A DNA stretch of 64,000 bases. Source: Candidatus Omnitrophota bacterium. GTDB taxonomy: Bacteria > Omnitrophota > Gorgyraeia > Pluralincolimonadales > Pluralincolimonadaceae. The position numbers and the translations under genes were made by a program. The notes under the pieces were generated by a model, which saw only the letters and a list, made by a program, of their open reading frames with translations, searched no databases and was not told the origin of the DNA. Within the stretch, counting starts at the first letter, position 1; each line of letters starts with the position of its first letter. The stretch lies in NCBI GenBank assembly GCA_028716565.1, contig JAQUPL010000008.1, forward strand, positions 13,067 to 77,066. Reading direction: 5' to 3'. Of the stretch, positions 36,389-52,698 are shown piece after piece.

Positions 36389-39025
36389 TTAGGGATTAAA
36401 GGCGGCATCTCCCTGCCGCGCCGCATACGCAAAGCGGGCCTGGAGCCGGATGTCGCGGGATGAACTGCCGACGAGGATGTCGAATTCGCCGGGTTCGGCG
36501 ACCCAACCCTTCGCCTCAGCGTCGTAGAACGCGAGGGCTCGCTCGTCCAAACGGAAGATGACCTGCTTCGTTTCGCCCGGGGCCAACTCCACCTTCTCGA
36601 ACCCCTTGAGCTCCTTCACTGGGCGGGGCAGGCGGGACTCGACATCGTGGACGTAGAGTTGCACGACTTCCTTGCCCTTGCGCTTGCCCGTGTTCGTGAT
36701 GTCCACGCGAGCGACAAGGGTCTTGGGGTCCACGTTCAGGTTGCTGTACTTGAATGTCGTGTAGGACAATCCGTGCCCGAACGGGAAAAGGGGTTCCACG
36801 TTCCGAGTGTCGTAGTAACGGTAGCCAACCAGCAGGCCCTCCTTGTACTCGCAGTCCTTATCGTTGTACTGCCCGATTGCGTGGGCAGGACAGTCCTCGA
36901 GCCGCTTGGGAAACGTGATCGGCAGCTTTCCGGAGGGGTTGATGTCACCGAATACGATGTCGGCCACGGTGTTTCCGACTTCCATGCCGGCGTACCACGC
37001 CTGGACCACGCAGGGCACTTTGTCGATCCACGGCATCTCGACGGCGCTGCCGGAGACCAGGAACACGGCGGTGCGCGGATTGGCCGCCGCGACTGCCTCG
37101 ATCAACTCGTTCTGCCGCCCGTGCAGCCGGATGTCGCGACGGTCCTCACCCTCCTTGTCGTACTGATGGTTCTGGCCCGCGAACACCAACACGGCATCGG
37201 CCGCGCGAGCCGCTTTGATCGCCTCGGCAAATTCGACTTCGGGGCCGACGCGGGAGTCCGGCCTAACCCAACCCAGTTTAACCATTGCATCGCCGCTGGA
37301 TTCGTAGTACTCCACCTCGAAGTGGTAGGTCTGGCCCGCGGTCAACTCGATCTTCGCGTCCTTACGTTCCTCGGCATGGTCGGCCCAGTTGTCGATCACC
37401 ACCTTGCCGTTGATCTTCAGCCTTGAACCGTCGTCGCTCGTAAGGCCCAAGTGATAGATCCCGCTGGCAGTCGGCAGGATATCGGCCGTCCACCGCGCGG
37501 AGAAGTTATCCTTGGGTACACCTGCGGCCGGACCCAGATCCTTCCAGTTAAAGTCCATGGCCTTCTCATACCGGATCTCGACCGGCTGACCGTTCAGATT
37601 ACGGTCGTTGAAGTACTCACCCTTCCAACTCCGGATGCCGGACTTGGGATCTGTGGTCTGCACATACGTGTCGCTGATCGCCTCGAAAACCGTGGTGTCG
37701 CCCGTGTCCCGGTAACCCTCCACGTACGTGATCTTAACCATTCCCCCGCCCTTGCGTTTCAGCCCCTCGAGCGGGGTGATCTCATAAAGCGCGCGGATCG
37801 CCGAACTGCCGCCTTGATTCGCATGCTGTATGACAGCGTTCTCGCCGATCACAGCGAGCTTCAGTGTCTTGTTAATGTCGAGCGGCAGGACGCCGTCGTT
37901 CTTCAGCAGCACCATCGCCTCGCCGGCGACATCCCGGACCGCCTGCTGGTTTGCGGCGGTATTGCGCGATCCGGTCTTGCGTGTCGATGGATCAATCATA
38001 CCGGCCCGGATCATGAAGCGGAGGATCCGCCGGACCTTGTCGTCGACGACGCTCTCCGGAATCTCCCCGCGCTCGACGGCCTGCCGAAGGGGATTCGCAA
38101 AGAAGAAGGTGTCGTAGTTGTCCGACGTGCCCATCTCTATATCGAGCCCGTTCACCGCGGCATCGCGCGTGCTGTGCGTTCCGCCCCAGTCCGAAATACA
38201 GACACCGTCGAACCCCCACGCCCCCTTGAGAATGTCGTTCATTAGGTACTTGTTCTCTCCGCACCACTGTCCCCGGAACTTGTTGTAGGAGGTCATTACC
38301 GTCCAGGCACCCGCGCGGACGGCCGCCTCGAACGCCGGCAGGTAAATTTCGCGCAGGGTGCGCTCGTCGGCCACCACGTTGACCCAGCCGCGGTTCCACT
38401 CCTGGTTGTTCAGCGCGTAGTGCTTCACGCACGCCGCCACATCGTTGCTCTGGATGCCGCGCACCACCTCGGACGCCATCTGGCCGACTTGGTACGGGTC
38501 CTCGCCGTAATACTCGAAATTGCGGCCACAGACTGGAGTGCGGACGATGTTGATGCCTGGGCCCAGGAGGATGTCCTTGTTACGATGACGCGCCTCCGCG
38601 CCCAATGTTTCGCCGAATCGGCGTCCCATTTCCCGATTCCAAGTCGACGCCAGCGCAGAGCCGGTCGGGAGATAGGTCACGTAGTCATCCTCCCACCCCG
38701 CAGGCTCCCAGGAGTTGGCGGCGGTTTCGCGCCGTACTCCGTGCGGGCCGTCAGACATCGCCACACGGGGAATCCCCAGCCGTTCGATCCCAGCGGTATT
38801 GAACTTCGAGTTGGCGTGGCAAAGCGAAAGCTTTTCGGCCAGCGACATCTGCTTCAGCAGGTCGTTGATGCGTGTTTCAATTGCCGGCACCGGCGCGAGG
38901 TTCTCAGCTTTGTCAATAGCGGTCGCGGCAACAGCTTGAGTTTCTGATTGAAAACCCTGGAGTCCGCCGCATGATATAGTGAATGTTACCAGAAGTGTGA
39001 CGAAAACGTACTTAAACATATTCAT
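36389..39025 (-). CDS. bglX: GH3 beta-glucosidase with inserted PA14 domain, lipoprotein/secreted
   Basis: GH3 N- and C-terminal domains (catalytic region around SDW), a PA14 segment (YHLGLTSDDGSRLKINGK) and a fibronectin-like C-terminus. Start MNMFKY at 39025 follows AAAGGAG. The gene is visibly more GC-rich than its neighbours. Confidence 0.85.
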   Translation of the reverse strand: MNMFKYVFVTLLVTFTISCGGLQGFQSETQAVAATAIDKAENLAPVPAIETRINDLLKQMSLAEKLSLCHANSKFNTAGIERLGIPRVAMSDGPHGVRRETAANSWEPAGWEDDYVTYLPTGSALASTWNREMGRRFGETLGAEARHRNKDILLGPGINIVRTPVCGRNFEYYGEDPYQVGQMASEVVRGIQSNDVAACVKHYALNNQEWNRGWVNVVADERTLREIYLPAFEAAVRAGAWTVMTSYNKFRGQWCGENKYLMNDILKGAWGFDGVCISDWGGTHSTRDAAVNGLDIEMGTSDNYDTFFFANPLRQAVERGEIPESVVDDKVRRILRFMIRAGMIDPSTRKTGSRNTAANQQAVRDVAGEAMVLLKNDGVLPLDINKTLKLAVIGENAVIQHANQGGSSAIRALYEITPLEGLKRKGGGMVKITYVEGYRDTGDTTVFEAISDTYVQTTDPKSGIRSWKGEYFNDRNLNGQPVEIRYEKAMDFNWKDLGPAAGVPKDNFSARWTADILPTASGIYHLGLTSDDGSRLKINGKVVIDNWADHAEERKDAKIELTAGQTYHFEVEYYESSGDAMVKLGWVRPDSRVGPEVEFAEAIKAARAADAVLVFAGQNHQYDKEGEDRRDIRLHGRQNELIEAVAAANPRTAVFLVSGSAVEMPWIDKVPCVVQAWYAGMEVGNTVADIVFGDINPSGKLPITFPKRLEDCPAHAIGQYNDKDCEYKEGLLVGYRYYDTRNVEPLFPFGHGLSYTTFKYSNLNVDPKTLVARVDITNTGKRKGKEVVQLYVHDVESRLPRPVKELKGFEKVELAPGETKQVIFRLDERALAFYDAEAKGWVAEPGEFDILVGSSSRDIRLQARFAYAARQGDAAFNP

Positions 39026-39089
39026 ACCTTTGCTCCTTTTTATATAGATCATTTAATGATACCTCCTTTTTCATTGTTTCTCCTTATAT

Positions 39090-40410: not shown

Positions 40411-41622
40411 TTATAAATAAACTATATCCTCCGGATGATATAACGAAAGAAATAATAACATATACTCTTTCAAATGGCGCGTTATCAGAAAATTGTTCCT
40501 TACGTGCTCTTTTCCGTTCTCGCCTAATTTGCGGGCATAATCCGGGCTGCTCAAGAGCTGTTTTACGGCAAAACTCGCCCCTTCGACGGAATGACAAAGT
40601 AGTCCCGAATATTTATGCGTTATCTGCAATGGTATGCCGCCGACGTTGGATGCTACAACCGGTTTCGCTTTCCATAAGGCTTCGGAGACTGTAAGGCCAA
40701 AACCTTCTCTTAAAGATTTCTGCAAGATCACCGCTGAAGCTCTTTGAAGCGCGTTTATTTCAATATCGTTCTGCGCAAGCAAAAGCACATGTATATCTGG
40801 GTCGCCTTTTGCGGCCTCTTTTACTTCAAGCAGAACTTCCGCGCTCTCCGGGTCATCCGAGGCCCCTCCTCCCGCAAGAATTAGCCGGCAATCGGCGTAT
40901 CTCTTTACCTGCCTGTATACCTTTAAAACTCCCAGAGGATCCTTCAACCTGTCAAAACGCGATATCTGCGTGATTATAGGCTTATCTTTCGGAATTTCGT
41001 ATTTATTTAATACCGAATCTATCGTCTCCTGTGAAAGCTCCTTATTTTTGTCGCTTAACGGATCGATCGAGGGAGATATCAGAAATTGCCTTATTGGCAA
41101 TTTCTGGGAGAAGGCCGGAGCTGAAAAGACTGCCGCATCATATTTATCGATATAACCCCTAAGAAATCCCCAGACATCCTGATTCGGCTCGGAGACATCT
41201 ACGTGGCAACGCCAGACCCATTTATTTTCCTTCCTCTTGTCAACCAGGACCACGGGCTGGGGATCGTGAATAAATACGATGTCTCCGTAAGTATCCAGCT
41301 CTTCCATATTCATGCGGCTTGTTTCCAGGAATATATCGAAATCCTTTTTTGAAATTTCCACGTTGACTCCGTGAAGAGCATTGTGGAAATTCTTGGTGAC
41401 CTCGAAAAACTGCTCTCCCCCTTTTATCAGGTCCCACCGCGCGTCTACCCCGAGCTCTTTTAAGAGGGGTATCATCCTGTTCAGTATCTCCGCCACGCCT
41501 CCGCCGACCGAGGTTGAATTGATATTCTGGATCACCTTGCCTCTTAACCTCTCGGCAAGAAGCCTTAGGTCGTCTATTGTCGGCTGTCCCACGATAGGGA
41601 TATATTCGTCTATTTTCCCCAT
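40411..41622 (-). CDS. treT: trehalose glycosyltransferring synthase (TreT-type, GT4)
   Basis: Strong similarity to archaeal and bacterial TreT: NSTSVGGGVAEIL, WRCHVDVS, PSIDPLSDKN, IITQISRFD, DDPES, ILQKSLREGFGLTVSEALWKAKPVV. Confidence 0.8.
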   Translation of the reverse strand: MGKIDEYIPIVGQPTIDDLRLLAERLRGKVIQNINSTSVGGGVAEILNRMIPLLKELGVDARWDLIKGGEQFFEVTKNFHNALHGVNVEISKKDFDIFLETSRMNMEELDTYGDIVFIHDPQPVVLVDKRKENKWVWRCHVDVSEPNQDVWGFLRGYIDKYDAAVFSAPAFSQKLPIRQFLISPSIDPLSDKNKELSQETIDSVLNKYEIPKDKPIITQISRFDRLKDPLGVLKVYRQVKRYADCRLILAGGGASDDPESAEVLLEVKEAAKGDPDIHVLLLAQNDIEINALQRASAVILQKSLREGFGLTVSEALWKAKPVVASNVGGIPLQITHKYSGLLCHSVEGASFAVKQLLSSPDYARKLGENGKEHVRNNFLITRHLKEYMLLFLSLYHPEDIVYL

Positions 41623-41623
41623 A

Positions 41624-42295
41624 TCAGGCCGGCATCCTTCTCTTGATTATCCCGATCACTTTATCCCTTAAACCCTCCAGGGTAAAAGTATAAGGATCAA
41701 GCTGAGATATCTCCCTTGCCATCCGCTCATCGCCGACCGAATTCATTATCCAATTCGAAAAATCGTTCGTATTTTTTTCAAGCCTCAGGCGCGCCTCAAA
41801 GACGTGATAATAAATGGAATCTATGGTTATCTTATCTAAAATATCTATGAAATCCTTCAAATCATACGCTTCATATTTGGTCGGAAGCACGAAGCTTACC
41901 GACTTCACGAAATGGAATTCGTCGCCTTCCCCCGCGAACCTGATCTTTGCCGTCGGGTTCTCGGCCAGATACGACTCGATCACCTCGACCAGCTTCTCCC
42001 TTAAGCTGCGGATAGTATTAAACTGTATGACGTCTATGCTCGCCAGCTTCTCTCCTAACTCATCATCGCCCATTACCTCTGTCACCCAATACGCAAAATC
42101 GTTCGGCGGTTCCGGCGAAAGGTGCTGGTGCTGCTGCAGGAACCTGTGAGTATGGTGATATATGCAGGAACCGTTCACCACTTTCATAAGCTCGAGCAAT
42201 TGCCCTAAGGTCGAGGCCCTCAATCCGGTTAACTCGGAAAGATGCATCCTCGTATAGAATCTAAAGGATTCTCTTGCTTTCCGTATCTCTGCCAT
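41624..42295 (-). CDS. hypothetical protein conserved within the trehalose cluster (223 aa)
   Basis: No recognisable motifs. It is tightly packed between otsB and treT, with a 1-nt gap to treT. Confidence 0.45.
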   Translation of the reverse strand: MAEIRKARESFRFYTRMHLSELTGLRASTLGQLLELMKVVNGSCIYHHTHRFLQQHQHLSPEPPNDFAYWVTEVMGDDELGEKLASIDVIQFNTIRSLREKLVEVIESYLAENPTAKIRFAGEGDEFHFVKSVSFVLPTKYEAYDLKDFIDILDKITIDSIYYHVFEARLRLEKNTNDFSNWIMNSVGDERMAREISQLDPYTFTLEGLRDKVIGIIKRRMPA

Positions 42296-43097
42296 GTTCC
42301 TGTTCCTTCTTTAAACCGTTAACCATCCTTAAGAACTTCAATACATCCTTGTGGCTCTTAAGATAATATTTCGCTTTGGACTTCTTAGGCATGCCTACAA
42401 ATATGGTCAAACTCTTTTTCCTTAAGGCCGAAAAAGCGTCCTCGTCGGTCACGTCATCGCCTATATAAACCGGCAATACCGGATCCCCTCCCGACACGAA
42501 TACCTGCCTTGCGAGAAGCCACATCACAGATCTCCCCTTGTCCCATTCAATGGGAGGCCTTACTTCCAGTATCATCTTCCCGGTATTTATCTTTATCTTA
42601 TTGCCGACCAAATAATATATTATCGCCTCGTGGAACGCCGTTTTGACTAAATGGATATTATCCTCATTTACCAGGCGGTAATGCACGCTTAACGTACAGC
42701 CCTTGTCTTCCAGTATGACGCCTTTTATATGAGCGAGCCTTCTGAGCAGATCGAGTTTTATTTTCCTGACTATCTTTTTAAAGCCCGAGGGGACGACGCT
42801 TTCGAATTTCAATTTAGGCCCTTCGATCTCCAGGCCATGGTTGCCGGAATAGATGATGTTTTTTAAGCCGACGACGCTCTTTATGTCCTTCAATGACCGG
42901 CCGCTGATTACGGCAAGCTTACACCCCCGGTTCTTTGATAATTCATACAATATATCCCTGGCTTCTTTAGAAAGAACTGCTCTATCCGGAGTGTCTGCGA
43001 TGGAGGTCAATGTTCCATCGTAGTCTAAAAAAAGTATAATGCGGCTATTTCTCAGATCTTCCTTTAAATGACCCCAATGATTAAAAAGATACTTCAT
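42261..43097 (-). CDS. otsB: trehalose-6-phosphate phosphatase (HAD superfamily)
   Basis: ILFLDYDGTLT (DxDGT), SGRS and GDDVTDED HAD motifs. Start MKYLF at 43097 overlaps the upstream stop as ATGA. Confidence 0.8.
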   Translation of the reverse strand: MKYLFNHWGHLKEDLRNSRIILFLDYDGTLTSIADTPDRAVLSKEARDILYELSKNRGCKLAVISGRSLKDIKSVVGLKNIIYSGNHGLEIEGPKLKFESVVPSGFKKIVRKIKLDLLRRLAHIKGVILEDKGCTLSVHYRLVNEDNIHLVKTAFHEAIIYYLVGNKIKINTGKMILEVRPPIEWDKGRSVMWLLARQVFVSGGDPVLPVYIGDDVTDEDAFSALRKKSLTIFVGMPKKSKAKYYLKSHKDVLKFLRMVNGLKKEQEHGRDTESKRIL

Positions 43098-44149
43098 ATC
43101 CAGAAAACCGCTAAAAAATATCCCAGCATTAGTATGAGCCCTAAGGGTATCCCTAATCTGGCCCAAGCCCGGCTGGGGATATTTAGCTTTCCCGCTGCGA
43201 TGATATTAGGGATATTCCCGGGGATAAGCATCCCTCCTGAGACCAGCAAGCCCATAAGTATCGCCCGAATATGTCCTATATCCATCTTTGGCGTGATCTC
43301 GGCGGCGGTTAAGGTCGCGTTATCCAGAATAGCCGAAACGATGTTGAGCCAATACAGCCCTTTAGCCGACATCTGGACTACATAGGCGTCTATAATAGGC
43401 TTAAATCCCTTGCCTAAAAAAATCAAAGCCATCACAAAAAGATAAACTTTACCCGCGCGGATAAAAATGTCTTTTACTATCTCCGGCCTGTCTTCGGCTA
43501 AGGTCGTCTTTTCGGAGATTTTGGGTCTTATAAATGTGGCCAAAAAACCCAGGACCAGGATTCCCGGTAAAATATATAATCCCAGTAATTTCACCAAAAA
43601 CCAAAAATCGGCATTAAAAGGGGGCCCTTTCAATTTGGATATAGCGATCGTAGACAAAGGTTCGCCGATCGGAGTGAGGGCGGCTCCCAATCCTATGGAA
43701 AAACAGGCTATGACCACAAAATTAGTTTCGGTCTTTTTGTCAAATTTCATCCCGGTAACCAGTTCCACTAAAACCAAAGAAGCGATGATCGCAGTGATCG
43801 CGCTTGACATGACCCCCAATAATACCACGACCAAAAAGAATACCCATTTAACCCCTATTTGACGGATAACTTTACTAATTGTCGACCGTATGCGGTCCCT
43901 GACATAACGGAAGAGCAACCCGGCCACCAGTACCGCAACGCTGATCTTTATCGGCTCGACCAATGCCTCATAGACCAAATGTTTACTCCACAATTGAGAG
44001 ATCGTCACCGCCGATAAACCCATGACAAAAAGAAAAATCTCTAAATCCCGCTCTATTCTCTTTACCAGGAAAGGCAGGACAAATACCGTTACGATTATCC
44101 CGGCAAGCCCCCACATGATCCAGGCAGATAAGACTATTTTTTCGGTCAA
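43094..44149 (-). CDS. DUF1646-like polytopic membrane protein (predicted cation transporter)
   Basis: About 10 TM helices. The family assignment comes from general resemblance only. Confidence 0.4.
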   Translation of the reverse strand: MTEKIVLSAWIMWGLAGIIVTVFVLPFLVKRIERDLEIFLFVMGLSAVTISQLWSKHLVYEALVEPIKISVAVLVAGLLFRYVRDRIRSTISKVIRQIGVKWVFFLVVVLLGVMSSAITAIIASLVLVELVTGMKFDKKTETNFVVIACFSIGLGAALTPIGEPLSTIAISKLKGPPFNADFWFLVKLLGLYILPGILVLGFLATFIRPKISEKTTLAEDRPEIVKDIFIRAGKVYLFVMALIFLGKGFKPIIDAYVVQMSAKGLYWLNIVSAILDNATLTAAEITPKMDIGHIRAILMGLLVSGGMLIPGNIPNIIAAGKLNIPSRAWARLGIPLGLILMLGYFLAVFWI

Positions 44150-44173
44150 TTTATTCTCCCGGTGCGCCTATTT

Positions 44174-46408
44174 CTAACTTTTTTTCAGCGCCGTCAGTTC
44201 TGTAATTATATTGCCTGCCCAGCGGTACACGTTATTTTCTGTAACTATTTTACGCATGTTTTCCATGCGTTTTTTCCTCTCTTCGGCAGGCATTTCCACC
44301 GCAAATTTTATGGCGTCGGCGAATTCTTCTATAGAATAAGGATTTATCTGGACCGCGTCTGTCAGTTCCCTCGCGGCCCCCGTAAAACGGCTCAGGACCA
44401 AAACGCCGTCCAGATTCTTATTTGAGATAACATATTCCTTTGCTACCAGATTCATCCCGTCATGCAGGGAACTCACGATGCAAACATCCGCTAAAGCATA
44501 ATACGGCTTGATCTCTTCCGGAGAAAAATGCCTCTTTAAGTATATGATCGGTTTCCAGTTCCCGTCATAATGCTTCCAGTTGACTTTCTCGACCGCCTCA
44601 TCTATCTCCGCCATCAGGTCATGGTAGCGCTTTATATGGATCCTGCTTGGAGCTGCCAATTGAAGAAAAACAAACTTACCTTTATATTGAGGATATTTCT
44701 CCAAAAACCTGTCTATGGCGGACATCCTTTCTATTAGTCCCTTCGTGTAGTCGATCCTCTCCACCCCGACAGCGACTATCTTGCCTTCCAGCTCAAATTC
44801 CTTAGATAATTCGTCTATTTCAGCTAAATCCTGCTTAGTAGTCTCACCCATATAAGTATCTACGCTTATCGGGAAGGCGCGGACAAAAGTCTCTTTTCCG
44901 GCCCGTACTATGCTAAATTTTTCCGTGTCAACGCGGGATTCGAGAAGCCTGTTTGCAGTATCGAGAAAATTATTGCAGTGATATTGCACATGAAAACCTA
45001 TCAAATCACAAGCTAACATTCCATCCAGAATTTCTTTTTGATAGGGGCAGGTAGCGAATATCTCGGGATTCGGCCACGGTATATGCCAGAATAGCGCTAC
45101 GGTCGCGTTAGGTTGTTTTTCCTTTATCATCTTAGGAAGAAGCGTAAAATGATAATCCTGAATAAAGACAAGGGGATTTTTCGCGGGCAACTCTTCCAAG
45201 ACGGCGTCGGCAAATTTCTGGTTTACTTCCTTGTACATCTGCCAGTCGGACTCCCGAAATAGGGGCCGAGTATGGGTAATGTGACAAAGCGGCCATAATC
45301 CTTCATTGGAAAAACCATAGTAATAACCCTGCTCTTCCTCTTTTGTCAGCCAGACTCTTTTGAGAATATAACGGTTATCTTCAGGCGGAACGGCTAGTTT
45401 GTTCTTGGAGTTTACAAATTTTCTGTCCGCATTCCCGCTTCCGTGAGCGATCCATGTCCCGCCGCAAGCCTGCAATATGGGGTCTACGGCGGTAACAACG
45501 CCGCTTGCAGGCCTAATACACCTGGTTTCCCCGCTTGTGTCCTCGATGACATGCATATAAGGTTCCCTGTTTGAGACCACGCATAAAGCGTTTTCGCCTA
45601 ACTTGGCAAGGACAACGTTTCGGAGCTTTGCTTCTGTCCACAAATCCTCATTCTCTAAGCGAACTTGAGCTTCACCGGAGATTGTTTTACGCGCGATCCT
45701 TAAACTCAAAGCTATCTGCTCGACTTCACTGGCAAGTTTTCCAAACGCGCCTTTTTCTTTCGTTATCGGATGCTGTTTGTCTATCTCGCCTTTTTGAAAA
45801 AGATGGAACCACTCGGTAAGCTGGAGAACGGGCAAAATAAATATCCGCCTCTGCAGCAACACCATGATTAACGTGATAGATACGACCAAAATTATCAGGG
45901 CAGTGCTTACATGCCTCCATAGCTCCGTCAGCGTCGTAAAAACATACGAGGTATCGTAAACAACCTCTACCACACCCAAAACATTTTTTTCGTCATCCAG
46001 AACAGGAAGGACGTAGCTGTACACGGAATATTCCTTGAATTTTTCCAGCGCTCCGCGGGGATTTTTCGTCTCCAATGCTTCTTTAATATAAGGCTTGTCT
46101 TTCTGTCCCCAATCGGATATCCTGGAGGTGATCGACAATACTTTGCCATCCTTGTCGTAAATCACGCATCCCTGGAGCCTTTCTCTCTTTTGAAAGCTTT
46201 CCGTAAGACGGTTAGTCGATCTTAAGTCGTTGTTGATCAAAACGTACTTTACGGATAATTCGGTGCTTTCGGCAACAGTTTTTGCCTTTCTTTGAAGGTC
46301 ATCCATCAACTTGCCTTCTTCAAAATTAACTTGCACTATGCCGAATACCGTAAAGACCAAGGCAACGATGATCAGGATCGGTAAAATAAACAATAGTATT
46401 CGTCTCAT
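44174..46408 (-). CDS. otsA: membrane sensor-HAMP-OtsA fusion: TM1, roughly 140-aa extracytoplasmic domain, TM2, HAMP-like linker, then alpha,alpha-trehalose-phosphate synthase (GT20)
   Basis: Residues 1-190 carry two hydrophobic helices flanking a periplasmic-type domain. Residues 190-250 form an amphipathic HAMP-like segment. From about residue 330 there are classic OtsA motifs (GFSNEGLWPLCH, FIQDYHFTLLP, LHDGMNLVAKEY). Confidence 0.8.
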   Translation of the reverse strand: MRRILLFILPILIIVALVFTVFGIVQVNFEEGKLMDDLQRKAKTVAESTELSVKYVLINNDLRSTNRLTESFQKRERLQGCVIYDKDGKVLSITSRISDWGQKDKPYIKEALETKNPRGALEKFKEYSVYSYVLPVLDDEKNVLGVVEVVYDTSYVFTTLTELWRHVSTALIILVVSITLIMVLLQRRIFILPVLQLTEWFHLFQKGEIDKQHPITKEKGAFGKLASEVEQIALSLRIARKTISGEAQVRLENEDLWTEAKLRNVVLAKLGENALCVVSNREPYMHVIEDTSGETRCIRPASGVVTAVDPILQACGGTWIAHGSGNADRKFVNSKNKLAVPPEDNRYILKRVWLTKEEEQGYYYGFSNEGLWPLCHITHTRPLFRESDWQMYKEVNQKFADAVLEELPAKNPLVFIQDYHFTLLPKMIKEKQPNATVALFWHIPWPNPEIFATCPYQKEILDGMLACDLIGFHVQYHCNNFLDTANRLLESRVDTEKFSIVRAGKETFVRAFPISVDTYMGETTKQDLAEIDELSKEFELEGKIVAVGVERIDYTKGLIERMSAIDRFLEKYPQYKGKFVFLQLAAPSRIHIKRYHDLMAEIDEAVEKVNWKHYDGNWKPIIYLKRHFSPEEIKPYYALADVCIVSSLHDGMNLVAKEYVISNKNLDGVLVLSRFTGAARELTDAVQINPYSIEEFADAIKFAVEMPAEERKKRMENMRKIVTENNVYRWAGNIITELTALKKS

Positions 46409-46412
46409 ATGA

Positions 46413-47438
46413 TTATCCCTTCATTTCAATGCGTGTCCGCGGTAAACATTCGGGGAAGCGTCGTTGTAAAAACTCCACAAGATTTTCCCTGACTTCACAA
46501 CGTAAGTCCCACATAGCGGGAGAATCCGCTGCGCTCATAAGCGCCCGCAACTCGACTGTTTTGTCAGTTACATTGGTAACCTGCAGCGCATCGACCTTTT
46601 TATCCCACTTTGTGCTGTTTTTGAGAATACGCGTTAATTCATTACGGACTTCTTTCACGGGTACGGTGTAATCGGTATAGATAAGAACAGTTCCCAGTAA
46701 ATCTGCTGAAGTCCGCGTCCAATTCTGAAATGGTTTTTCGAGAAAATATGATATGGGGACTACCAAACGCCTCAGGTCCCAAATACGCACTACCACAAAA
46801 GTGAGGGTAATTTCCTCGATCCAGCCCCATTCATCCTCGATAATGACCACATCATCCAGCCTAATTGGCTGGGCAATGGCTATCTGAATGCCGGCGATGA
46901 GATTCCCCAGCGTTTTTTGCGCGGCAAAACCTATAACTACCCCGACAATTCCTGCCGAGGCCAATATGCTTACACCTATATGCCTGACTTGCGGGAAACT
47001 CATCAGCATAAAGGAAACGGTTAACAAAACTATGACCACGATCATGATATTGGCGATCACGCGCATTTGCGTATGCATACCACGAGCACGCACATTGTCC
47101 CGAACCGTGATATCATAACGGTTCAAAAACGCATCGCGAAGAATATAGACAATCTTAATAGCGACCCAACCAAACAACGCAATAAGCAGGATATAGATAA
47201 AATGGCCGATAAAGCCGCGCGCCTTTTCCGGTAGACGTAATAAAGGGATGACCCCCGCGATACATAAAGCTGGTATCAAAAAACGTAACGGACTTTTGAG
47301 AAGCCCCAGGTTGACCTTAAACAATTTTAAGGAAATAGTATCCCGCCGTTTAATTAAAAATGCAGCAAAAAAATAAATTATACAACCGACAATAAAGCTA
47401 GAGGCTATTAAAATGCCCGAAAACAAATAATCATTCAT
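46413..47438 (-). CDS. small-conductance mechanosensitive channel (MscS family)
   Basis: Three TM helices, then the conserved MscS beta-domain (GNLIAGIQIAIAQPIRLDDVV). Confidence 0.85.
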   Translation of the reverse strand: MNDYLFSGILIASSFIVGCIIYFFAAFLIKRRDTISLKLFKVNLGLLKSPLRFLIPALCIAGVIPLLRLPEKARGFIGHFIYILLIALFGWVAIKIVYILRDAFLNRYDITVRDNVRARGMHTQMRVIANIMIVVIVLLTVSFMLMSFPQVRHIGVSILASAGIVGVVIGFAAQKTLGNLIAGIQIAIAQPIRLDDVVIIEDEWGWIEEITLTFVVVRIWDLRRLVVPISYFLEKPFQNWTRTSADLLGTVLIYTDYTVPVKEVRNELTRILKNSTKWDKKVDALQVTNVTDKTVELRALMSAADSPAMWDLRCEVRENLVEFLQRRFPECLPRTRIEMKG

Positions 47439-47442
47439 GATT

Positions 47443-48897
47443 TTAAATCCTTTCTCGAGTCAGTCTGTCGAGGATCGCACGCAGCGATACCAGCCCGATA
47501 GTCGTCTGTTGGTCGTTTAACGCGTAAGGGATAATAAGCGTATCGCTATGGACCATTGCTCCGCACGAATAGACGACGTTCGGAACATACCCCGAACGAC
47601 TATTATCCTCCCAATGAATAAGCGGTTCGCTCAACCGGCCAATTACACGCGAAGGATCTTCGCGGTCAAGCAGGGCAGCGCTGATCGAATATTGGCGCAT
47701 CGGCCCGACGCCGTGGGTTAGGAGCAGCCACCCGCGGTCGGTCTCTATCGGAGAACCGCAATTCCCTATCTGCACGAACTCCCATGGATATAATGGACTC
47801 ATTAATGGAACGGCCTCATGCCAGAAATGGATATTATCGGAATACATAAGGAAAAGGTTCTCGTTATCGTTCCGGGAAACCATCGCGTAACGGCCATTTA
47901 TCTTGCGCCGGAACAAAGCCATCCCCTTATTGACCGCCGCCCTGCCGTTCAAGGTGATCATTTTAAAACGGATAAAATCTTCCGTCTCCATTATTTGCGG
48001 CAGGATAACCCTGCCGTCATACGCCGTATATGTGGCGTAATATTTCCCGCTTCCATCATCATTCTTAAAATATACGAAACGCGCATCCTCCATACCGTTC
48101 TGCTCGCTTGGAGAAAGCGGGAACAGGACGCGTTCTGAAAGCGGGAACTTCGGATCGAAAGTAGCTTCATAATTACATCGTGCCAGCCACAAGATCTTTT
48201 CGCAGGTAAGTTTGTCTGTCTGGGTTATCGGATGATGGCCTGCAGTGTAATCCCTGACCTTCTCTTCCAGCTGCTCCATGGTAAACTTTTCCGGTAACGG
48301 GTCCGTAATGTATTTTGAGCAGTTATTCTCCAGCCCCATTTCATAGAGTTTTCCGATGAAACACATCTTATCATAAAGAGCGCTCGGTTTCGGTTCGGCG
48401 GTACACGCGAGACCGGAAGTTTTGTCAATCGATACAGTTCCATATTTGTCTATGAGCCCCGAACGGAACACTAATGTAGATATCTGCCCCTCGCCTGTGG
48501 CGCGCAAAGAAATAATAAAACGCAGGGATCCTTCGGAAACCCCGGATTGGTCGGGATGCGCTACAATAGAAGGATTGAAGAGACCCGTTGATTCATATGA
48601 ACGCTCGCCGATGAAGTACGCTCCTATGAGAAGCCTGCGCGTTTTAGAGGGTGCAAAATCGGGAGGCATATATGCGCAGATGACCTCGAACTGGCGCTCA
48701 AGGATAGAATCAAAATTATGGTGTCGCGCTGAAAAATCCCGTACGGTCTTCTTCAATTCTTCTTCCGCGGCGGACTCGTCAAGAGCCATAATGCGCGAGA
48801 CGATCCCCGGGACGCGTGATTGATTCCCTGGAATGTACGGCCTGATGATGACGCGCCCGCTATCAGGGGCGATGACTATACCGGTATTCTTTATCAT
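47443..48897 (-). CDS. two-domain protein: unknown roughly 250-aa N-terminal domain plus GH130-family (beta-propeller glycoside phosphorylase/transferase-like) C-terminal domain
   Basis: C-terminal DARFVYF ... YYATYTAYDG and further GH130-like motifs. Confidence 0.6.
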   Translation of the reverse strand: MIKNTGIVIAPDSGRVIIRPYIPGNQSRVPGIVSRIMALDESAAEEELKKTVRDFSARHHNFDSILERQFEVICAYMPPDFAPSKTRRLLIGAYFIGERSYESTGLFNPSIVAHPDQSGVSEGSLRFIISLRATGEGQISTLVFRSGLIDKYGTVSIDKTSGLACTAEPKPSALYDKMCFIGKLYEMGLENNCSKYITDPLPEKFTMEQLEEKVRDYTAGHHPITQTDKLTCEKILWLARCNYEATFDPKFPLSERVLFPLSPSEQNGMEDARFVYFKNDDGSGKYYATYTAYDGRVILPQIMETEDFIRFKMITLNGRAAVNKGMALFRRKINGRYAMVSRNDNENLFLMYSDNIHFWHEAVPLMSPLYPWEFVQIGNCGSPIETDRGWLLLTHGVGPMRQYSISAALLDREDPSRVIGRLSEPLIHWEDNSRSGYVPNVVYSCGAMVHSDTLIIPYALNDQQTTIGLVSLRAILDRLTRERI

Positions 48898-51173
48898 TCC
48901 TCCAAGGGCTCCTTAAGACTTTCGAGAACATTTTCCATCTCTGTCATCTCGGTCAGGGAAAGAAGAAATGAAAGCGTAGATTCAGCGCCTTGATTGCGGT
49001 TCACCCTGTTAATGTGAAGCCCGTCGCAGCATCCGCCCGTCACCGGGTCATATAGTGAAATGCCGAGATCGTTGCTACCGAGGAACCACTGAAAAACATT
49101 TAAGGCTTCCTCGTACCACATCTTGTCTTTTGTTACGCGATAGGCATCGAGGCATGCCGAAACGGTAGCATAGGCTTCCACCGGTTGCTGGTCAAAGACA
49201 GGCTTGACCCCGCCGCGAATGTATTCGCCATCCGTGCCTACCGGCTGGAAATGGCCGCGGGACGAGGTCTGTACCTTCGTAAGCCAACTTAAAGACTCAA
49301 CCCCGGATCTCAGCATCTCTTCGTTATCGAGATCGTGTCCGCTTAACAAAAGGGCATGGGGTAATTTGGCGTCGCAATACGTCAGGGATGATTCAAACCA
49401 TCGCCATTCCGCATCGCTATTTGCCTTGTAAAGATCGTGAAGCCGAGCAGCGAGTGTCTGCAGGCAGTTGCGTGCGAGCCTGTCCCCGTGAAAACGCTGC
49501 AGATATTCATGTATACCTAGCAATATGAAAGCCCATGCGCGCGGCGAAGTAAACGACACCGAAGGGGCAAGCGCCTTTTCGAATAACTCGACCGACATCT
49601 GGGTAAAACCTTCATTTTTTGACCGCCCGATGCAGGTACCGATAGCCCATATCGCCCTACCGTGGCAATCTTCGCTGGACGTTTCTTCTTTCCAATTTCG
49701 CTGGAAGGTCAGGAAATTCCTGAACCGTACCATGGAGGGATCCCACGCGTATTTGACAAACCCGAGGTAACGGCTCGAGAGATCGTTGATCTTAAGAGGA
49801 TTTATGGTACCGAGGTTCTCAAGCAGGACGGTCAGGATGAGCGCCCGCGCATTGTCGTCTGTGCAATACCCTTCGGAAAAGTTGGGGACATTGAACGTGG
49901 CATGCTGGAAGATCCCGATGGAATCGGTCATCCTTACGAGATGATCTAGCTTGATATCGGGCAATACGGGAACCTGTTGTTCAAGAGGATACATCGTCAC
50001 CTTCTTTTGCGTCGCTGGAGAACGTTTCATTTTTGCTTCTTCAAAGATCGACGTATATTTTGACGCAACATTGCTCCATATCATCTCGCGGCCTAAAAGA
50101 TAGGCATTCTTGCGCATCGTATTACGTTCGTTTTCATTGACGATAAGCCTTGTAACCGCCTGCCCTATCGCTTCCGGATCGTTGAACGGTACAAGAATGC
50201 CCCTGCCGTCGCTGAGCAGTTCGGCGGCATGCCAGTATGGGGTCGAGATTACCGCGTTTCCTACGCCGAACGAATAGGCAAGGGTCCCGGAAACTACCTG
50301 CGCTTCTTCAAAATACGGGGTAATATAAATATCGGCGAGCACGAGCAACTCTTTAAGTTCTTCAGAAGATACGAAACGATTATGAAAAATGACATTACGC
50401 GAGATCTCAAGCTCATCGCAAAGACGTTGTAAAAAAAGCCTGTATGATTCACCCTCGTGTCTTAATAGATTGGGATGCGTAGCGCCGACGACTATGTATA
50501 CGGTGCTCGGACGCTCTTTTATGACTTTGGGAAGTGCGCGCAGGACTACCTCTATCCCCTTGCGCGGAGAAAGCAGCCCAAACGTAAGGAGCACGGTCTT
50601 GCCCTCAACCCCATACTGGTCTTTATAGAAATTCGGGTCGATGAAAGAAACGTCGGGTATCCCGTGCGGGACCAGCCGTATCTTAGATCCGTGTATCTTA
50701 TTTACTGCCTGAAGGATGTCGGCAGCCTTTTGCGTCATTACGACCGCATAATCAGACAGGCCAAGCAATTCATCCATAACGCGTCTCTGGCGCGCGGACG
50801 GATTTTTCAGTACCGTATGCAGGGTCGTTATTATGGGCATCTTCAATTGGCGTAATAAAGCCAATATATAACCGCCTGCGTCGCCTCCAAAAATACCGAA
50901 TTCGTGCTGAAGACAGACAACATCGATGTCGTTGAGGTTGAGGAAATCCGCTGCGGCTTTGTACGAGTCTATATCCTGCTCCTTGATCTCGAAACGTACG
51001 CGTTCCGGATAATCGTAACCTTCCTCGATATCCGTGACAGGTATCGCGAATACCTGGACAGAAGGGTTCAAGGCCGCGAACGCCTCGCAGATATCCGTGG
51101 TAAAAGTCGCGATGCCGCAGCGTCTGGGAAGATAATTTCCTATGAACGCTATCTTTTTGATATCATTGGCCAT
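48894..51173 (-). CDS. GT4-family glycosyltransferase fused to a C-terminal (alpha/alpha)6 glycosidase-like domain
   Basis: The N-terminal roughly 390 aa carry GT4 motifs (E-x7-E region, GGIPE-like). The C-terminal roughly 370 aa form a six-hairpin-like domain. The gene overlaps the GH130 start by 4 nt. Confidence 0.7.
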   Translation of the reverse strand: MANDIKKIAFIGNYLPRRCGIATFTTDICEAFAALNPSVQVFAIPVTDIEEGYDYPERVRFEIKEQDIDSYKAAADFLNLNDIDVVCLQHEFGIFGGDAGGYILALLRQLKMPIITTLHTVLKNPSARQRRVMDELLGLSDYAVVMTQKAADILQAVNKIHGSKIRLVPHGIPDVSFIDPNFYKDQYGVEGKTVLLTFGLLSPRKGIEVVLRALPKVIKERPSTVYIVVGATHPNLLRHEGESYRLFLQRLCDELEISRNVIFHNRFVSSEELKELLVLADIYITPYFEEAQVVSGTLAYSFGVGNAVISTPYWHAAELLSDGRGILVPFNDPEAIGQAVTRLIVNENERNTMRKNAYLLGREMIWSNVASKYTSIFEEAKMKRSPATQKKVTMYPLEQQVPVLPDIKLDHLVRMTDSIGIFQHATFNVPNFSEGYCTDDNARALILTVLLENLGTINPLKINDLSSRYLGFVKYAWDPSMVRFRNFLTFQRNWKEETSSEDCHGRAIWAIGTCIGRSKNEGFTQMSVELFEKALAPSVSFTSPRAWAFILLGIHEYLQRFHGDRLARNCLQTLAARLHDLYKANSDAEWRWFESSLTYCDAKLPHALLLSGHDLDNEEMLRSGVESLSWLTKVQTSSRGHFQPVGTDGEYIRGGVKPVFDQQPVEAYATVSACLDAYRVTKDKMWYEEALNVFQWFLGSNDLGISLYDPVTGGCCDGLHINRVNRNQGAESTLSFLLSLTEMTEMENVLESLKEPLEE

Positions 51174-51237
51174 CTTGTCTATCTCCGGCTACAAATAAAG
51201 AACCATCTGATTTTTCGTCAGATGGCGGCCCGACCAT
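51163..51237 (-). promoter_or_regulatory. leader ORF (24 aa, SD GGAGGA) spanning a terminator-like hairpin (CCATCTGA-7 nt-TCAGATGG plus U-tract, 51193-51225) and ending inside the GT4 start: candidate attenuator
   Basis: Hairpin stem at 51203-51210 and 51218-51225. The U-tract UUCUUUAUUUGU follows on the minus strand, and the GT4 SD GGAGAU and ATG come immediately after. Leader ATG at 51237, stop TGA at 51165..51163. Confidence 0.4.
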
Positions 51238-51354
51238 CAAAAATCCTCCGAAAATATGTTTTCTATTCTCGGACCCTTTTAATTACTTCATAAGTATAAC
51301 ATATTTTTTTTGAAAAACAACCTTTAATCGCGGCGTGGACGGAAGAAATAAAGG

Positions 51355-52698
51355 CTATATTCTCCCCTTGATGATTTTGATTATTCTCAATAACATCCCC
51401 GTAAGACTCTTCCTTCTCGGATGGTATTCAGGATAAAGCTCTTCGATAACCTTCCCCGTTTCCACTTCTATGGATGAGGATTTCTTTACAGCGAGGACTT
51501 GGGACGGGTAAACACTTCTATGGCCGGTCATCAGAAAGCTTATAATACACCCTAGAGTGGCGTAAGGAGCTACGGTGGGCCCAAAGAGTTCGACCGCCAT
51601 AATACTTGCCGCTATAGGCGTATTAGCTGCCCCCGCTAATAGGCTGACCATGCCGATCGCGGCGAAAGTCGCTACATCAAGGCCTAAGAATTTCGCAAAT
51701 ACCACCCCTGCTGCCGAACCGACAAAAAATATCGGCGTAACTATGCCGCCGCTTCCGCCAAAATTAAGCGTAACGCTTGTGAAAATTATCTTTAATATAA
51801 ACGCGTACCAGATAATATTCACCCCTTGCAGGCAGGATTGGATTGTATCCAAGCCGAGGCCGAGATATTGTTTCGAAAATATCAGCGCCAGGACTACAAT
51901 GGCAAAACCGCCGATAAGACCTTTTAACGGCTTCCATACCCTGACCTTATTCGAAAGCTTTTCGGCTAATTTCAATATCTCTATCATGAACGCGGCGCAT
52001 AAGCCGAAAAAGATTCCGGATAAGACTACTTTAATAAAAAATGCGTTGCTGAAGATGGGAATGAGATTTATCTGGCCATGAAAATAAGTTATTCCAAGGG
52101 ACGAGGAAACGTGGTAGCTGATTATTCCTGCTATAAAAGAGGGCAAAAGGACGTCATATAATATACTGCCTACAAAAAGCACTTCGACGCCGAATATAGC
52201 GCCGGCTATGGGTGTGCCAAAAACCGAAGCGAAACCGGCGCTTATGCCGCATATGACCAGTTTTCTCCTGTCTTTGTCGTCAAATCTAAAAATATCCGCG
52301 GCAACGGAGGAAAGCCCGCCTCCTATTTGAGCGCACGGTCCTTCCTTCCCCGCCGAGCCCCCTGCCGCTATAGTAATGATCGTCGTGATAAGCTTGACGG
52401 GGATGACCGCTGCTTTTATCTTTCCTGCGTGCTTATGTACAGCTTCGATAACCTTCTCTGTCCCATGGCCTTCGGCGTCAGGCGCCAGATATTTGATCAT
52501 TAGGGCACTTAAAAACAACGCGAGTGGCAGTATAAGGAAATAATAGTTATACTTCCCGCTAAATGCCGTGCTCCAGTTCAGCATCTTCAAAAACAGGGTC
52601 GTAGACAAGCCGACAATGATCCCTATGAATGTCGCAAGGACGACCCATTTTATGATACTGATAAAAAGGACTGTTTCTTCCGCTAATCTTCTTCTCAA
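51355..52698 (-). CDS. ClC-family chloride channel / H+:Cl- antiporter
   Basis: GSGIP-like, GKEGP and GxFxP-type selectivity motifs. 447 aa with about 10-12 helices. TTG start. Confidence 0.8.
   Translation of the reverse strand: MRRRLAEETVLFISIIKWVVLATFIGIIVGLSTTLFLKMLNWSTAFSGKYNYYFLILPLALFLSALMIKYLAPDAEGHGTEKVIEAVHKHAGKIKAAVIPVKLITTIITIAAGGSAGKEGPCAQIGGGLSSVAADIFRFDDKDRRKLVICGISAGFASVFGTPIAGAIFGVEVLFVGSILYDVLLPSFIAGIISYHVSSSLGITYFHGQINLIPIFSNAFFIKVVLSGIFFGLCAAFMIEILKLAEKLSNKVRVWKPLKGLIGGFAIVVLALIFSKQYLGLGLDTIQSCLQGVNIIWYAFILKIIFTSVTLNFGGSGGIVTPIFFVGSAAGVVFAKFLGLDVATFAAIGMVSLLAGAANTPIAASIMAVELFGPTVAPYATLGCIISFLMTGHRSVYPSQVLAVKKSSSIEVETGKVIEELYPEYHPRRKSLTGMLLRIIKIIKGRI

Follow-up and report, generated by a model that had tools for sequence, protein, structure and literature searches.

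We analysed a 64,000-nt stretch of the Candidatus Omnitrophota assembly GCA_028716565.1 (contig JAQUPL010000008.1, positions 13,067 to 77,066; the whole stretch is called the window) and observed that one gene on its reverse strand encodes a membrane sensor with a HAMP domain joined directly to a trehalose-6-phosphate (T6P) synthase, OtsA. The overall architecture of this protein (hereafter sensor-OtsA), in which a first transmembrane helix (TM1), a single periplasmic Cache/PDC domain, a second transmembrane helix (TM2), a HAMP domain and a helical linker of fixed length precede a GT20 catalytic domain, is very nearly certain. That it works as a dimeric receptor-enzyme package of sensor, HAMP, stalk and T6P synthase, free of any phosphorelay and placed under a riboswitch, is in our judgement reasonably probable. 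The sequence family itself, already in public databases, is no discovery.

The reading frame has a Shine-Dalgarno-like motif (GAAGGGA) approximately 10 nt 5′ of its start codon. Only two hydrophobic segments were found by hydropathy in the 744-residue protein, within residues 1-31 and 163-198. Because MRR precedes TM1 and QRR follows TM2, the predicted topology is N-in, loop-out, C-in, with residues 26-166 facing outward and both the N-terminus and the remainder after TM2 in the cytoplasm. The Pfam scan gave no match to HisKA or HATPase_c anywhere in the protein, which, judged from its sequence, resembles the input half of a histidine kinase but is no kinase. The initial annotation, made from the letters alone, was accurate in coordinates, topology and domain content. 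Its order of TM1, a roughly 140-residue extracytoplasmic domain, TM2 and a HAMP-like linker was borne out by hydropathy, Pfam, family profiles, AlphaFold2 and Foldseek, and its replacement of the kinase core by a complete GT20 OtsA domain was borne out by the presence of all catalytic motifs together with the lack of HisKA and HATPase matches. The N-terminal region was found to be membrane-embedded and HAMP-like, rather than soluble or non-HAMP.

The periplasmic domain was compared with known sensors by sequence profile and by predicted structure. The profile of the N-terminal region, built from 28 diverse family members, matched the extracellular domain of Staphylococcus aureus WalK (5is1, 4ywz and 7dud) at positions 31-148, with expectation values (E) of 9e-6 to 9e-5. 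The AlphaFold2 model of residues 1-273 had a mean predicted local distance difference test (pLDDT) score of 79 (81-92 over residues 20-180) and showed two long helices (2-59 and 154-205), two short ones and a five-stranded sheet (78-152). The PDB entry that Foldseek matched best to it was the integrative model of WalK (9a5d_A; 261 columns; template modelling score normalised by the query, TMq, 0.67; E = 4e-10), followed by the WalK extracellular crystal structures 5is1 and 4ywz (score normalised by the target, TMt, 0.72-0.76); the PDC domains of KinD, CitA (2j80, TMt 0.76) and DcuS (3by8, TMt 0.71) were also matched. In the model, the periplasmic domain is thus predicted to be a single Cache/PDC fold, superposable on known PDC sensors. 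The remote likeness to WalK (approximately 20% identity) carries no ligand assignment over. Among the Pfam models, dCache_3 matched residues 37-175 with 28-31 bits (cut-off 25.7), covering only the first half of the double-Cache model, and sCache_3_2 scored 18.6 bits in the window protein (cut-off 28.4) and matched 7 of the 28 family members. The double-Cache reading suggested by the name of the first model was rejected, given a domain of approximately 140 residues, a match to half of the model and a single PDC fold. A single-sequence phmmer search of the N-terminus against the PDB returned nonsignificant matches only (MJ0922 CBS, E = 0.07; Af1503, E = 0.85), and the CBS match, which did not recur with the family profile, was put down to chance.

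Homology, profiles and predicted structure together identify the segment that follows TM2 as a HAMP domain. Pfam HAMP was matched directly by 4 of the 28 family members (best E = 1.7e-6), and the family profile at positions 165-243 matched the TM2-HAMP region of Tsr (E = 0.0026), the HAMP domain of Af1503 (E = 0.017-0.09) and NarQ. After TM2, the predicted structure runs as a helix to residue 205, a 15-residue loop (206-220) and a second helix (221-253), and the proline of the first amphipathic helix (AS1, P193) and the glycine of the connector (G207) are invariant in the family. Several proteins that share the sensor but carry no GT20 are ordinary histidine kinases (P0249, P0251, P0257 and P0264), and their Pfam HAMP matches (E = 1e-12 to 1e-15) fall exactly where they align with residues 186-240 of the window protein; the BLASTP alignment of these residues with the Pfam-positive HAMP domains of P0257 and P0249 was collinear and without major gaps. 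When the sensor-OtsA family was aligned by hhalign with the set of these uncharacterised kinases, the probability was 99.9% (E = 1.7e-33) over 262 collinear columns. The kinase alignment runs through the post-HAMP helix (LAKLG in the window protein, LAALG in P0249) and ends approximately 10 residues before the H-box of the kinases, so that GT20 stands where the kinases have their DHp-CA core. GGDEF outputs (P0145 and P0154) carry this sensor module too; since it occurs on both HisKA/HATPase and GGDEF outputs, it behaves as a portable signalling input.

Within the N-terminal 273 residues, conservation among the 28 representatives was highest in the second amphipathic helix of HAMP (AS2) and the linker, where mean pairwise identity was 0.38, compared with 0.25-0.27 in the TM helices and in the Cache domain. 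Within the linker, W257, T258 and L262 are invariant in the family and R250 and L270 nearly so. The spacing between W257 and the catalytic R281 was 24 residues in 37 of the 37 sequences, taken from the two main clades, in which invariance was scored. Given this constant length and conserved sequence, a register-dependent signalling helix is expected, rather than a flexible tether. The linker aligned with the pre-H-box stalk of the kinases, in which the W257-T258...L262 motif has no counterpart, and the motif may be an adaptor that lets HAMP drive the GT-B domain.

The output domain matched PF00982 (GT20) at residues 275-739 with 408 bits (cut-off 32.5), covering profile positions 3-472 of 473. 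Mycobacterium thermoresistibile OtsA (5jij) was matched over the whole domain (E = 1e-81), with Escherichia coli OtsA and fungal Tps1 close behind, and the identity to these soluble OtsA/Tps1 enzymes was 30-34%. The GT-B fold was recovered by Foldseek matches to 5l3k, 5jio and 1uqu (TMt 0.89-0.90, E approximately 1e-35), with pLDDT mostly 80-95 in this part of the model. The motifs SNR, GG-loop, YYxGFSN..LWP, QDYH, HIPxP, RxDYTKG, APSR and DGMNLVAKE were all aligned with 5jij. The donor and acceptor motifs were invariant in the 37 sequences, as were R281, G303, Y362-F366, W372, D418, H442, R551, K556, R589, D650 and E658, which from our reading of the literature we take to be the counterparts of E. 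coli OtsA Arg9, Gly22, Tyr76, Trp85, Asp130, His154, Arg262, Lys267, Arg300, Asp361 and Glu369. By these residues the GT20 domain is predicted to be catalytically complete, and T6P is its likely product. The possibility that it makes another sugar phosphate (glucosylglycerol-phosphate, as GgpS does) or is a VldE-like pseudo-glycosyltransferase appears distinctly improbable. The NCBIfam equivalog of OtsA (TIGR02400) scored 431.8 bits, below its trusted cut-off of 564.85, the GgpS model (TIGR02398) also scored 319.5 bits, and the operon holds a GT4 and a GH130 protein, further glycosyl enzymes without an assigned product. TIGR02400 was still the top single-function GT20 model, however; the top NCBIfam and PDB matches were all OtsA/Tps1, and the match to VldE was far weaker (E = 3e-25). 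In addition, a bona fide OtsB is encoded two genes downstream, with a DUF1646 gene between, in an arrangement syntenic across phyla, and the positions presumably equivalent to those that bind the phosphate of glucose-6-phosphate in E. coli OtsA (R281, the Y362 region and R589, for Arg9, Tyr76 and Arg300) are invariant. The score of TIGR02400 under its cut-off marks a divergent OtsA subfamily.

The same fusion was found in many other assemblies. A protein 100% identical to that of the window (P0001) is on record from a 126-kb contig of a metagenome-assembled genome (MAG) and is labelled at NCBI as 'MAG: trehalose-6-phosphate synthase [Candidatus Omnitrophica bacterium]'. Homologues of 743-746 residues, 73-94% identical to the window protein and nearly all from Candidatus Omnitrophota, made up more than 120 clusters and came from independent NCBI, JGI, ENA and Logan assemblies. 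When one genome per GTDB species was scanned, 382 stretches coding for relatives were returned. The best 80 of these, from which taxonomic spread and alignment extents were read, aligned across residues 1-744 or 7-742 and came from Omnitrophota, Margulisiibacteriota (63-64% identity), many Acidobacteriota/Terriglobia (45-48%) and one MAG labelled Bacteroidetes, with some relatives on megabase contigs. A search seeded with Terriglobales added at least 120 further clusters of 760-763 residues; this acidobacterial group is a second clade, approximately 46% identical to the window protein. Overall, hundreds of collinear homologues of 739-763 residues were found, and sensor-OtsA is a large and widespread database family, not a rare one, annotated plainly as 'trehalose-6-phosphate synthase'. 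A look-up of cultured carriers among the clusters returned MAG or metagenome entries only. One homologue (P0141, 913 aa, from a Logan metagenome contig) has its sensor region doubled in tandem (residues 5-167 and 180-430) before GT20.

When the sensor part alone (residues 1-273) was searched against 1.8 billion cluster representatives, 505 matches were obtained at E ≤ 1e-3. Among the best 150 of these, 45 matched through at least query residue 240 and extended at least 40 residues further, and 34 of the 45 carried GT20 at the same junction. The GC content is even across the junction between sensor and GT20 in the window (0.43-0.46). The chance that assembly or a frameshift fused a sensor gene with a separate otsA is negligible, and this origin was excluded: the frame is uninterrupted, the composition is even, the junction spacing is invariant, and collinear homologues occur by the hundred in independent assemblies of several phyla, chromosome-scale contigs included. 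The search for other GT20 proteins with an N-terminal TM-HAMP region, proposed with the initial annotation, thus found hundreds across several phyla.

The eight-gene string that contains sensor-otsA is headed by an nhaA-I aptamer, 46 nt upstream of the ATG of the first gene. Riboswitches of this class have been validated; Li+ switches their genes on, and Na+ is bound weakly (PMC9646797). A terminator-like hairpin follows, with its 5′ arm shared in part with the 3′ arm of stem P2 in the aptamer, an overlap that appears consistent with the ON-switch design described for the class (PMC9646797), and this arrangement of aptamer and terminator recurs in related loci. In the window the aptamer lies 4.8 kb upstream of sensor-otsA, with three genes intervening, and in most relatives the two are adjacent. 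Rfam found nhaA-I upstream of sensor-otsA in nine of nine related loci scanned. A motif scan of 48 non-acidobacterial loci placed it at most 192 nt from the start codon in 23 and 0.5-1.3 kb upstream (mostly approximately 1.1 kb) in 11 more, or 34 of the 48 in total. In L003, the sole locus of the latter kind where the intervening gene was examined, this gene was MscS, and the interval of L028 holds an MscS homologue by tblastn. The Acidobacteriota sensor-otsA loci scanned had no nhaA-I, whereas most related loci of Omnitrophota and Margulisiibacteriota have it directly ahead of sensor-otsA or of an mscS-sensor-otsA pair. The original description of the class calls its association with T6P synthase occasional and puzzling and suggests Na+-sensing variants tied to osmotic stress; among the 944 representatives in its supplement, otsA is listed 16 times, glycosyl transferase five times, DUF1646 four times and mscS three times (PMC9646797). 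A link to osmotic or salt stress, of which the osmotic part had been proposed from the protein alone, was strengthened by the riboswitch and by the operon partners MscS, DUF1646, OtsB and TreT. A second copy of nhaA-I was observed downstream of treT in L012 (14987-15040, +), with a CitMHS-family transporter gene approximately 600 nt further on, and similarly in L022, L023, L027, L028, L044 and L048; these copies point to a multi-operon cation-riboswitch regulon in Omnitrophota.

All studied HAMP receptors dimerise through their TM and HAMP helices, and sensor-OtsA would form a homodimer in the same way. In the mechanism that we propose, a cue from the periplasm, envelope or membrane that is tied to salt or osmotic stress would shift the geometry of the HAMP bundle and stalk. 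AS2 would continue through the helical stalk straight into the first β-strand of GT20, and the stalk would pass the shift to this strand and to the adjoining SNR loop of the N-terminal lobe, which binds the acceptor, glucose-6-phosphate. Altered glucose-6-phosphate binding or lobe closure would then switch the rate of T6P synthesis with no phosphorelay. Control would have two layers: the riboswitch would raise transcription of the operon as the cytoplasmic cation rises, and the sensor would adjust the activity of the enzyme on a shorter time scale than transcription allows. The synthesis would be completed by OtsB, which would release trehalose; TreT would provide an alternative route, and on osmotic downshift solutes would be vented through MscS. 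Allosteric control of the enzyme by the sensor, the central step, is slightly favoured on the sequence evidence.

Such a sensor-dependent change in OtsA activity is proposed from the architecture of the protein, and several points count against it. Pfam HAMP (PF00672) did not match the window protein, or its residues 167-273 alone, even at E ≤ 10, and the glutamate of the canonical DExG at the start of AS2 is replaced in the window protein (A221-F222); the loss of this glutamate is probably the cause of the missing match, and some family members keep DE[IL]G at this place. AlphaFold2 confidence was low across HAMP and the linker (pLDDT 52-65), and no mechanistic conclusion was therefore drawn from the relative placement of the domains; the model is of a monomer only, and a four-helix bundle and a dimeric stalk are what we infer for the dimer. 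To these are added the score of TIGR02400 under its cut-off, given above, and the distribution of the riboswitch: because Acidobacteriota have the fusion without it, the salt link may be lineage-specific.

A rival reading is a passive role, in which the N-terminal module, a remnant of a kinase sensor, would only tether and dimerise OtsA at the inner membrane (for example, beside MscS or transporters, or to supply the envelope locally with trehalose) and transmit no signal, regulation being solely transcriptional through the riboswitch. We consider this role unlikely, although a HAMP domain degenerate relative to the Pfam model, an allostery proposed from sequence and a riboswitch that already supplies stimulus-dependent control would all fit it. 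So would the identity of the sensor between phyla, which is 25-31% vs. 56-60% for GT20, but such rapid divergence is typical of working sensors. A folded Cache domain is kept in at least three phyla, and a plain tether would not require one; in other proteins this module drives kinase and GGDEF outputs; and the Acidobacteriota clade retains the module without any riboswitch. The HAMP proline and glycine are invariant, and the constraint on the linker, of fixed length and with its invariant W257, T258 and L262, is the main, if indirect, argument for signal transmission over passive anchoring.

Signalling in the opposite direction, in which GT20 would act mainly as a sensor of a sugar nucleotide or sugar phosphate in the cytoplasm, with the periplasmic domain as the output that binds or releases a partner, as in LapD, is very improbable. 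HAMP can transmit either way in LapD, and the periplasmic domain is weakly similar to the LapD-type output domain 4u64. Its best matches, however, were ligand-sensing Cache/PDC domains, all catalytic residues are invariant, so that catalysis is under selection, and no conserved periplasmic partner gene was seen in the syntenic module of related loci.

The gene sensor-otsA is the fourth of eight tightly packed genes on the reverse strand (overlapping or at most 24 nt apart), in the order GT4, GH130, MscS, sensor-OtsA, DUF1646, OtsB, DUF5752 (OrfY-like) and TreT, and no convincing intergenic terminator was found within the string (Table 1). The order sensor-otsA, otsB, DUF5752, treT is kept in Omnitrophota and Margulisiibacteriota and, partly or wholly, in many Acidobacteriota loci; the MscS gene directly upstream of sensor-otsA also recurs in related loci. 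The listed TTG start of OtsB overlaps DUF1646, and translation more likely begins at the ATG at 43097. The PDB title of the OrfY entry of Thermoproteus tenax (4cso) is 'transcription factor', and the DUF5752 protein may regulate the trehalose genes; the literature search found no paper on DUF5752.

Table 1. Features of the sensor-otsA locus (positions in the 64,000-nt window; residues of sensor-OtsA)
Feature	Residues	Position	Strand	Evidence or remark
Aptamer nhaA-I (Li+-I class, Li+/Na+)		51220..51276	-	RF03057, 53 bits (gathering 37), model 1-55 of 55
Terminator-like hairpin and T-run, putative expression platform		51192..51226	-	9-bp stem 51226-51202, then TCTTTATTTG
GT4 glycosyltransferase, 759 aa, with extra C-terminal domain		48894..51173	-	First gene past the riboswitch
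GH130-family glycoside phosphorylase-like protein, 484 aa		47443..48897	-	Family profile
MscS-family mechanosensitive channel		46413..47438	-	Stop codon 4 nt ahead of the sensor-OtsA ATG
Sensor-HAMP-OtsA fusion ORF (open reading frame)		44174..46408	-	744 aa and stop; ATG start; no internal stop
TM1	~3-25	46334..46402	-	Hydropathy peak 3.26; AlphaFold2 helix 2-58; cytoplasmic MRR in front
Periplasmic single Cache/PDC domain, WalK-like (predicted)	~26-166 (141 aa)	45911..46333	-	Pfam, family profile, Foldseek
TM2	~167-186	45851..45910	-	Hydropathy peak 2.87; continuous AlphaFold2 helix 154-205; cytoplasmic QRR after
HAMP	~187-246	45671..45850	-	AS1 with P193; connector from G207; AS2 221-246
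Helical linker, conserved, of fixed length	247-274	45587..45670	-	Invariant columns; alignment with kinase stalk
GT20 (OtsA) catalytic domain	275-744	44177..45586	-	PF00982; 5jij match; Foldseek; invariant residues
DUF1646 membrane protein, proposed Na+/H+ antiporter family		43094..44149	-	394 bits; PMC9646797 supplement
OtsB trehalose-6-phosphate phosphatase		42261..43166	-	TIGR00685, 175.8 bits (cut-off 68)
DUF5752/OrfY-like putative transcription factor		41624..42295	-	232 bits; T. tenax OrfY 4cso, E = 1.6e-23
TreT-type trehalose synthase		40411..41622	-	PF21269, 183 bits; NF041139, 385 bits, below cut-off of 775

Two trehalose routes, OtsA/OtsB and TreT, share one operon with MscS and the DUF1646 cation transporter (40411-46408, -). 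The C-terminal approximately 150 residues of the GT4 protein resemble Yersinia YPO2471 (7tem, E = 5e-10), and the GH130 protein has an N-terminal extension of approximately 250 residues; together the two may make a further glycoside induced by salt. A CLC-type chloride channel gene (51355-52698, -) adjoins the riboswitch on its upstream side, and beyond it are genes for an ArsP-type permease, an OprB porin and an Asp-Al_Ex transporter with TrkA_C domains. On the other side of the string, an 887-residue GH3/PA14 β-glycosidase (36389-39052, -) has a GC content of 0.59-0.63 vs. approximately 0.45 around it, a difference that suggests horizontal acquisition. Several long antisense ORFs overlap this gene, as is typical of GC-rich DNA.

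Sensor-OtsA was compared with known systems on each side of its junction. WalK (YycG) and its kin have the same input module of TM1, single Cache/PDC, TM2 and HAMP, whereas sensor-OtsA lacks the DHp/H-box, the CA domain, a cytoplasmic PAS domain and a cognate response regulator; because a GT-B glycosyltransferase replaces the kinase core, the output is a metabolite and not a phosphoryl group. Soluble OtsA/Tps1 enzymes (1uqu, 5jij and fungal Tps1) share the GT-B fold, the binding motifs and an otsB in the operon. The known OtsA/Tps1 enzymes are soluble and are regulated by expression, oligomeric state, feedback or regulatory subunits, and we know of none with a transmembrane sensor-HAMP N-terminus. 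The comparison with HAMP-coupled receptor enzymes rests on established knowledge: HAMP-adenylyl cyclases (such as mycobacterial Rv3645) and HAMP-GGDEF cyclases follow the same logic of membrane receptor, HAMP, helical stalk and dimeric catalytic domain, but yield second messengers for downstream effectors, whereas sensor-OtsA yields an osmoprotectant precursor directly.

Two described systems resemble the operon. In the msc-gt-tpsp operon of T. tenax, the genes for T6P synthesis are likewise transcribed together with those for a glycosyltransferase and an MscS-type channel; the glycosyltransferase activates the synthase, and the channel was proposed to vent trehalose on downshift (PMC3634074). 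An OrfY homologue adjoins TreT in T. tenax treT-orfY, as in the window, and the synthase is controlled post-translationally, as is proposed for sensor-OtsA. The T. tenax synthase differs in being a soluble TPS-TPP fusion, activated by a complex with the glycosyltransferase, with no membrane sensor, HAMP or riboswitch. The Li+-I regulon has the same aptamer and terminator upstream of the operon and the same associated genes (otsA, glycosyl transferase, DUF1646 and mscS), but its description makes no mention of a fusion between this OtsA and a membrane sensor (PMC9646797).

The initial annotation knew of no characterised OtsA of this architecture, and our search of the full-text literature likewise found no description of a HAMP-, Cache- or transmembrane-fused OtsA, a negative that does not prove that none exists. 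Genes for trehalose synthesis are reported in papers on Omnitrophota, which do not remark on the fusion. The HAMP outputs listed in censuses of signal transduction are kinases, chemoreceptors, cyclases and phosphatases. HAMP-coupled receptor enzymes (cyclases and GGDEF proteins) are already known, and a GT-B metabolic enzyme as a HAMP output appears to be undescribed. That sensor-OtsA is the first case of HAMP directly gating a GT-B metabolic glycosyltransferase, a one-protein transmembrane osmostat under a cation riboswitch with MscS as the release valve, is a tentative proposal that we hold possible but short of probable.

If the proposed control is real, the coupling rules of HAMP would reach the GT-B fold through a biosynthetic enzyme of a compatible solute, and the cell would have a route to adjust osmolyte synthesis within seconds, quicker than by transcription. 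The sensing, synthesis and venting of trehalose would then be a three-tier homeostat encoded by one operon. The family would be a tractable system for how HAMP signals reach outputs that are not coiled coils, and the order sensor, HAMP, enzyme a compact chassis for engineering ligand-controlled glycosyltransferases. The otsA-associated Li+-I riboswitches, flagged as puzzling by Breaker and colleagues, would gain a coherent context in salt stress. To our knowledge, the osmotic and desiccation physiology of Omnitrophota and soil Acidobacteriota is almost undocumented, and sensor-OtsA is the predominant family for trehalose synthesis in the former and in many of the latter.

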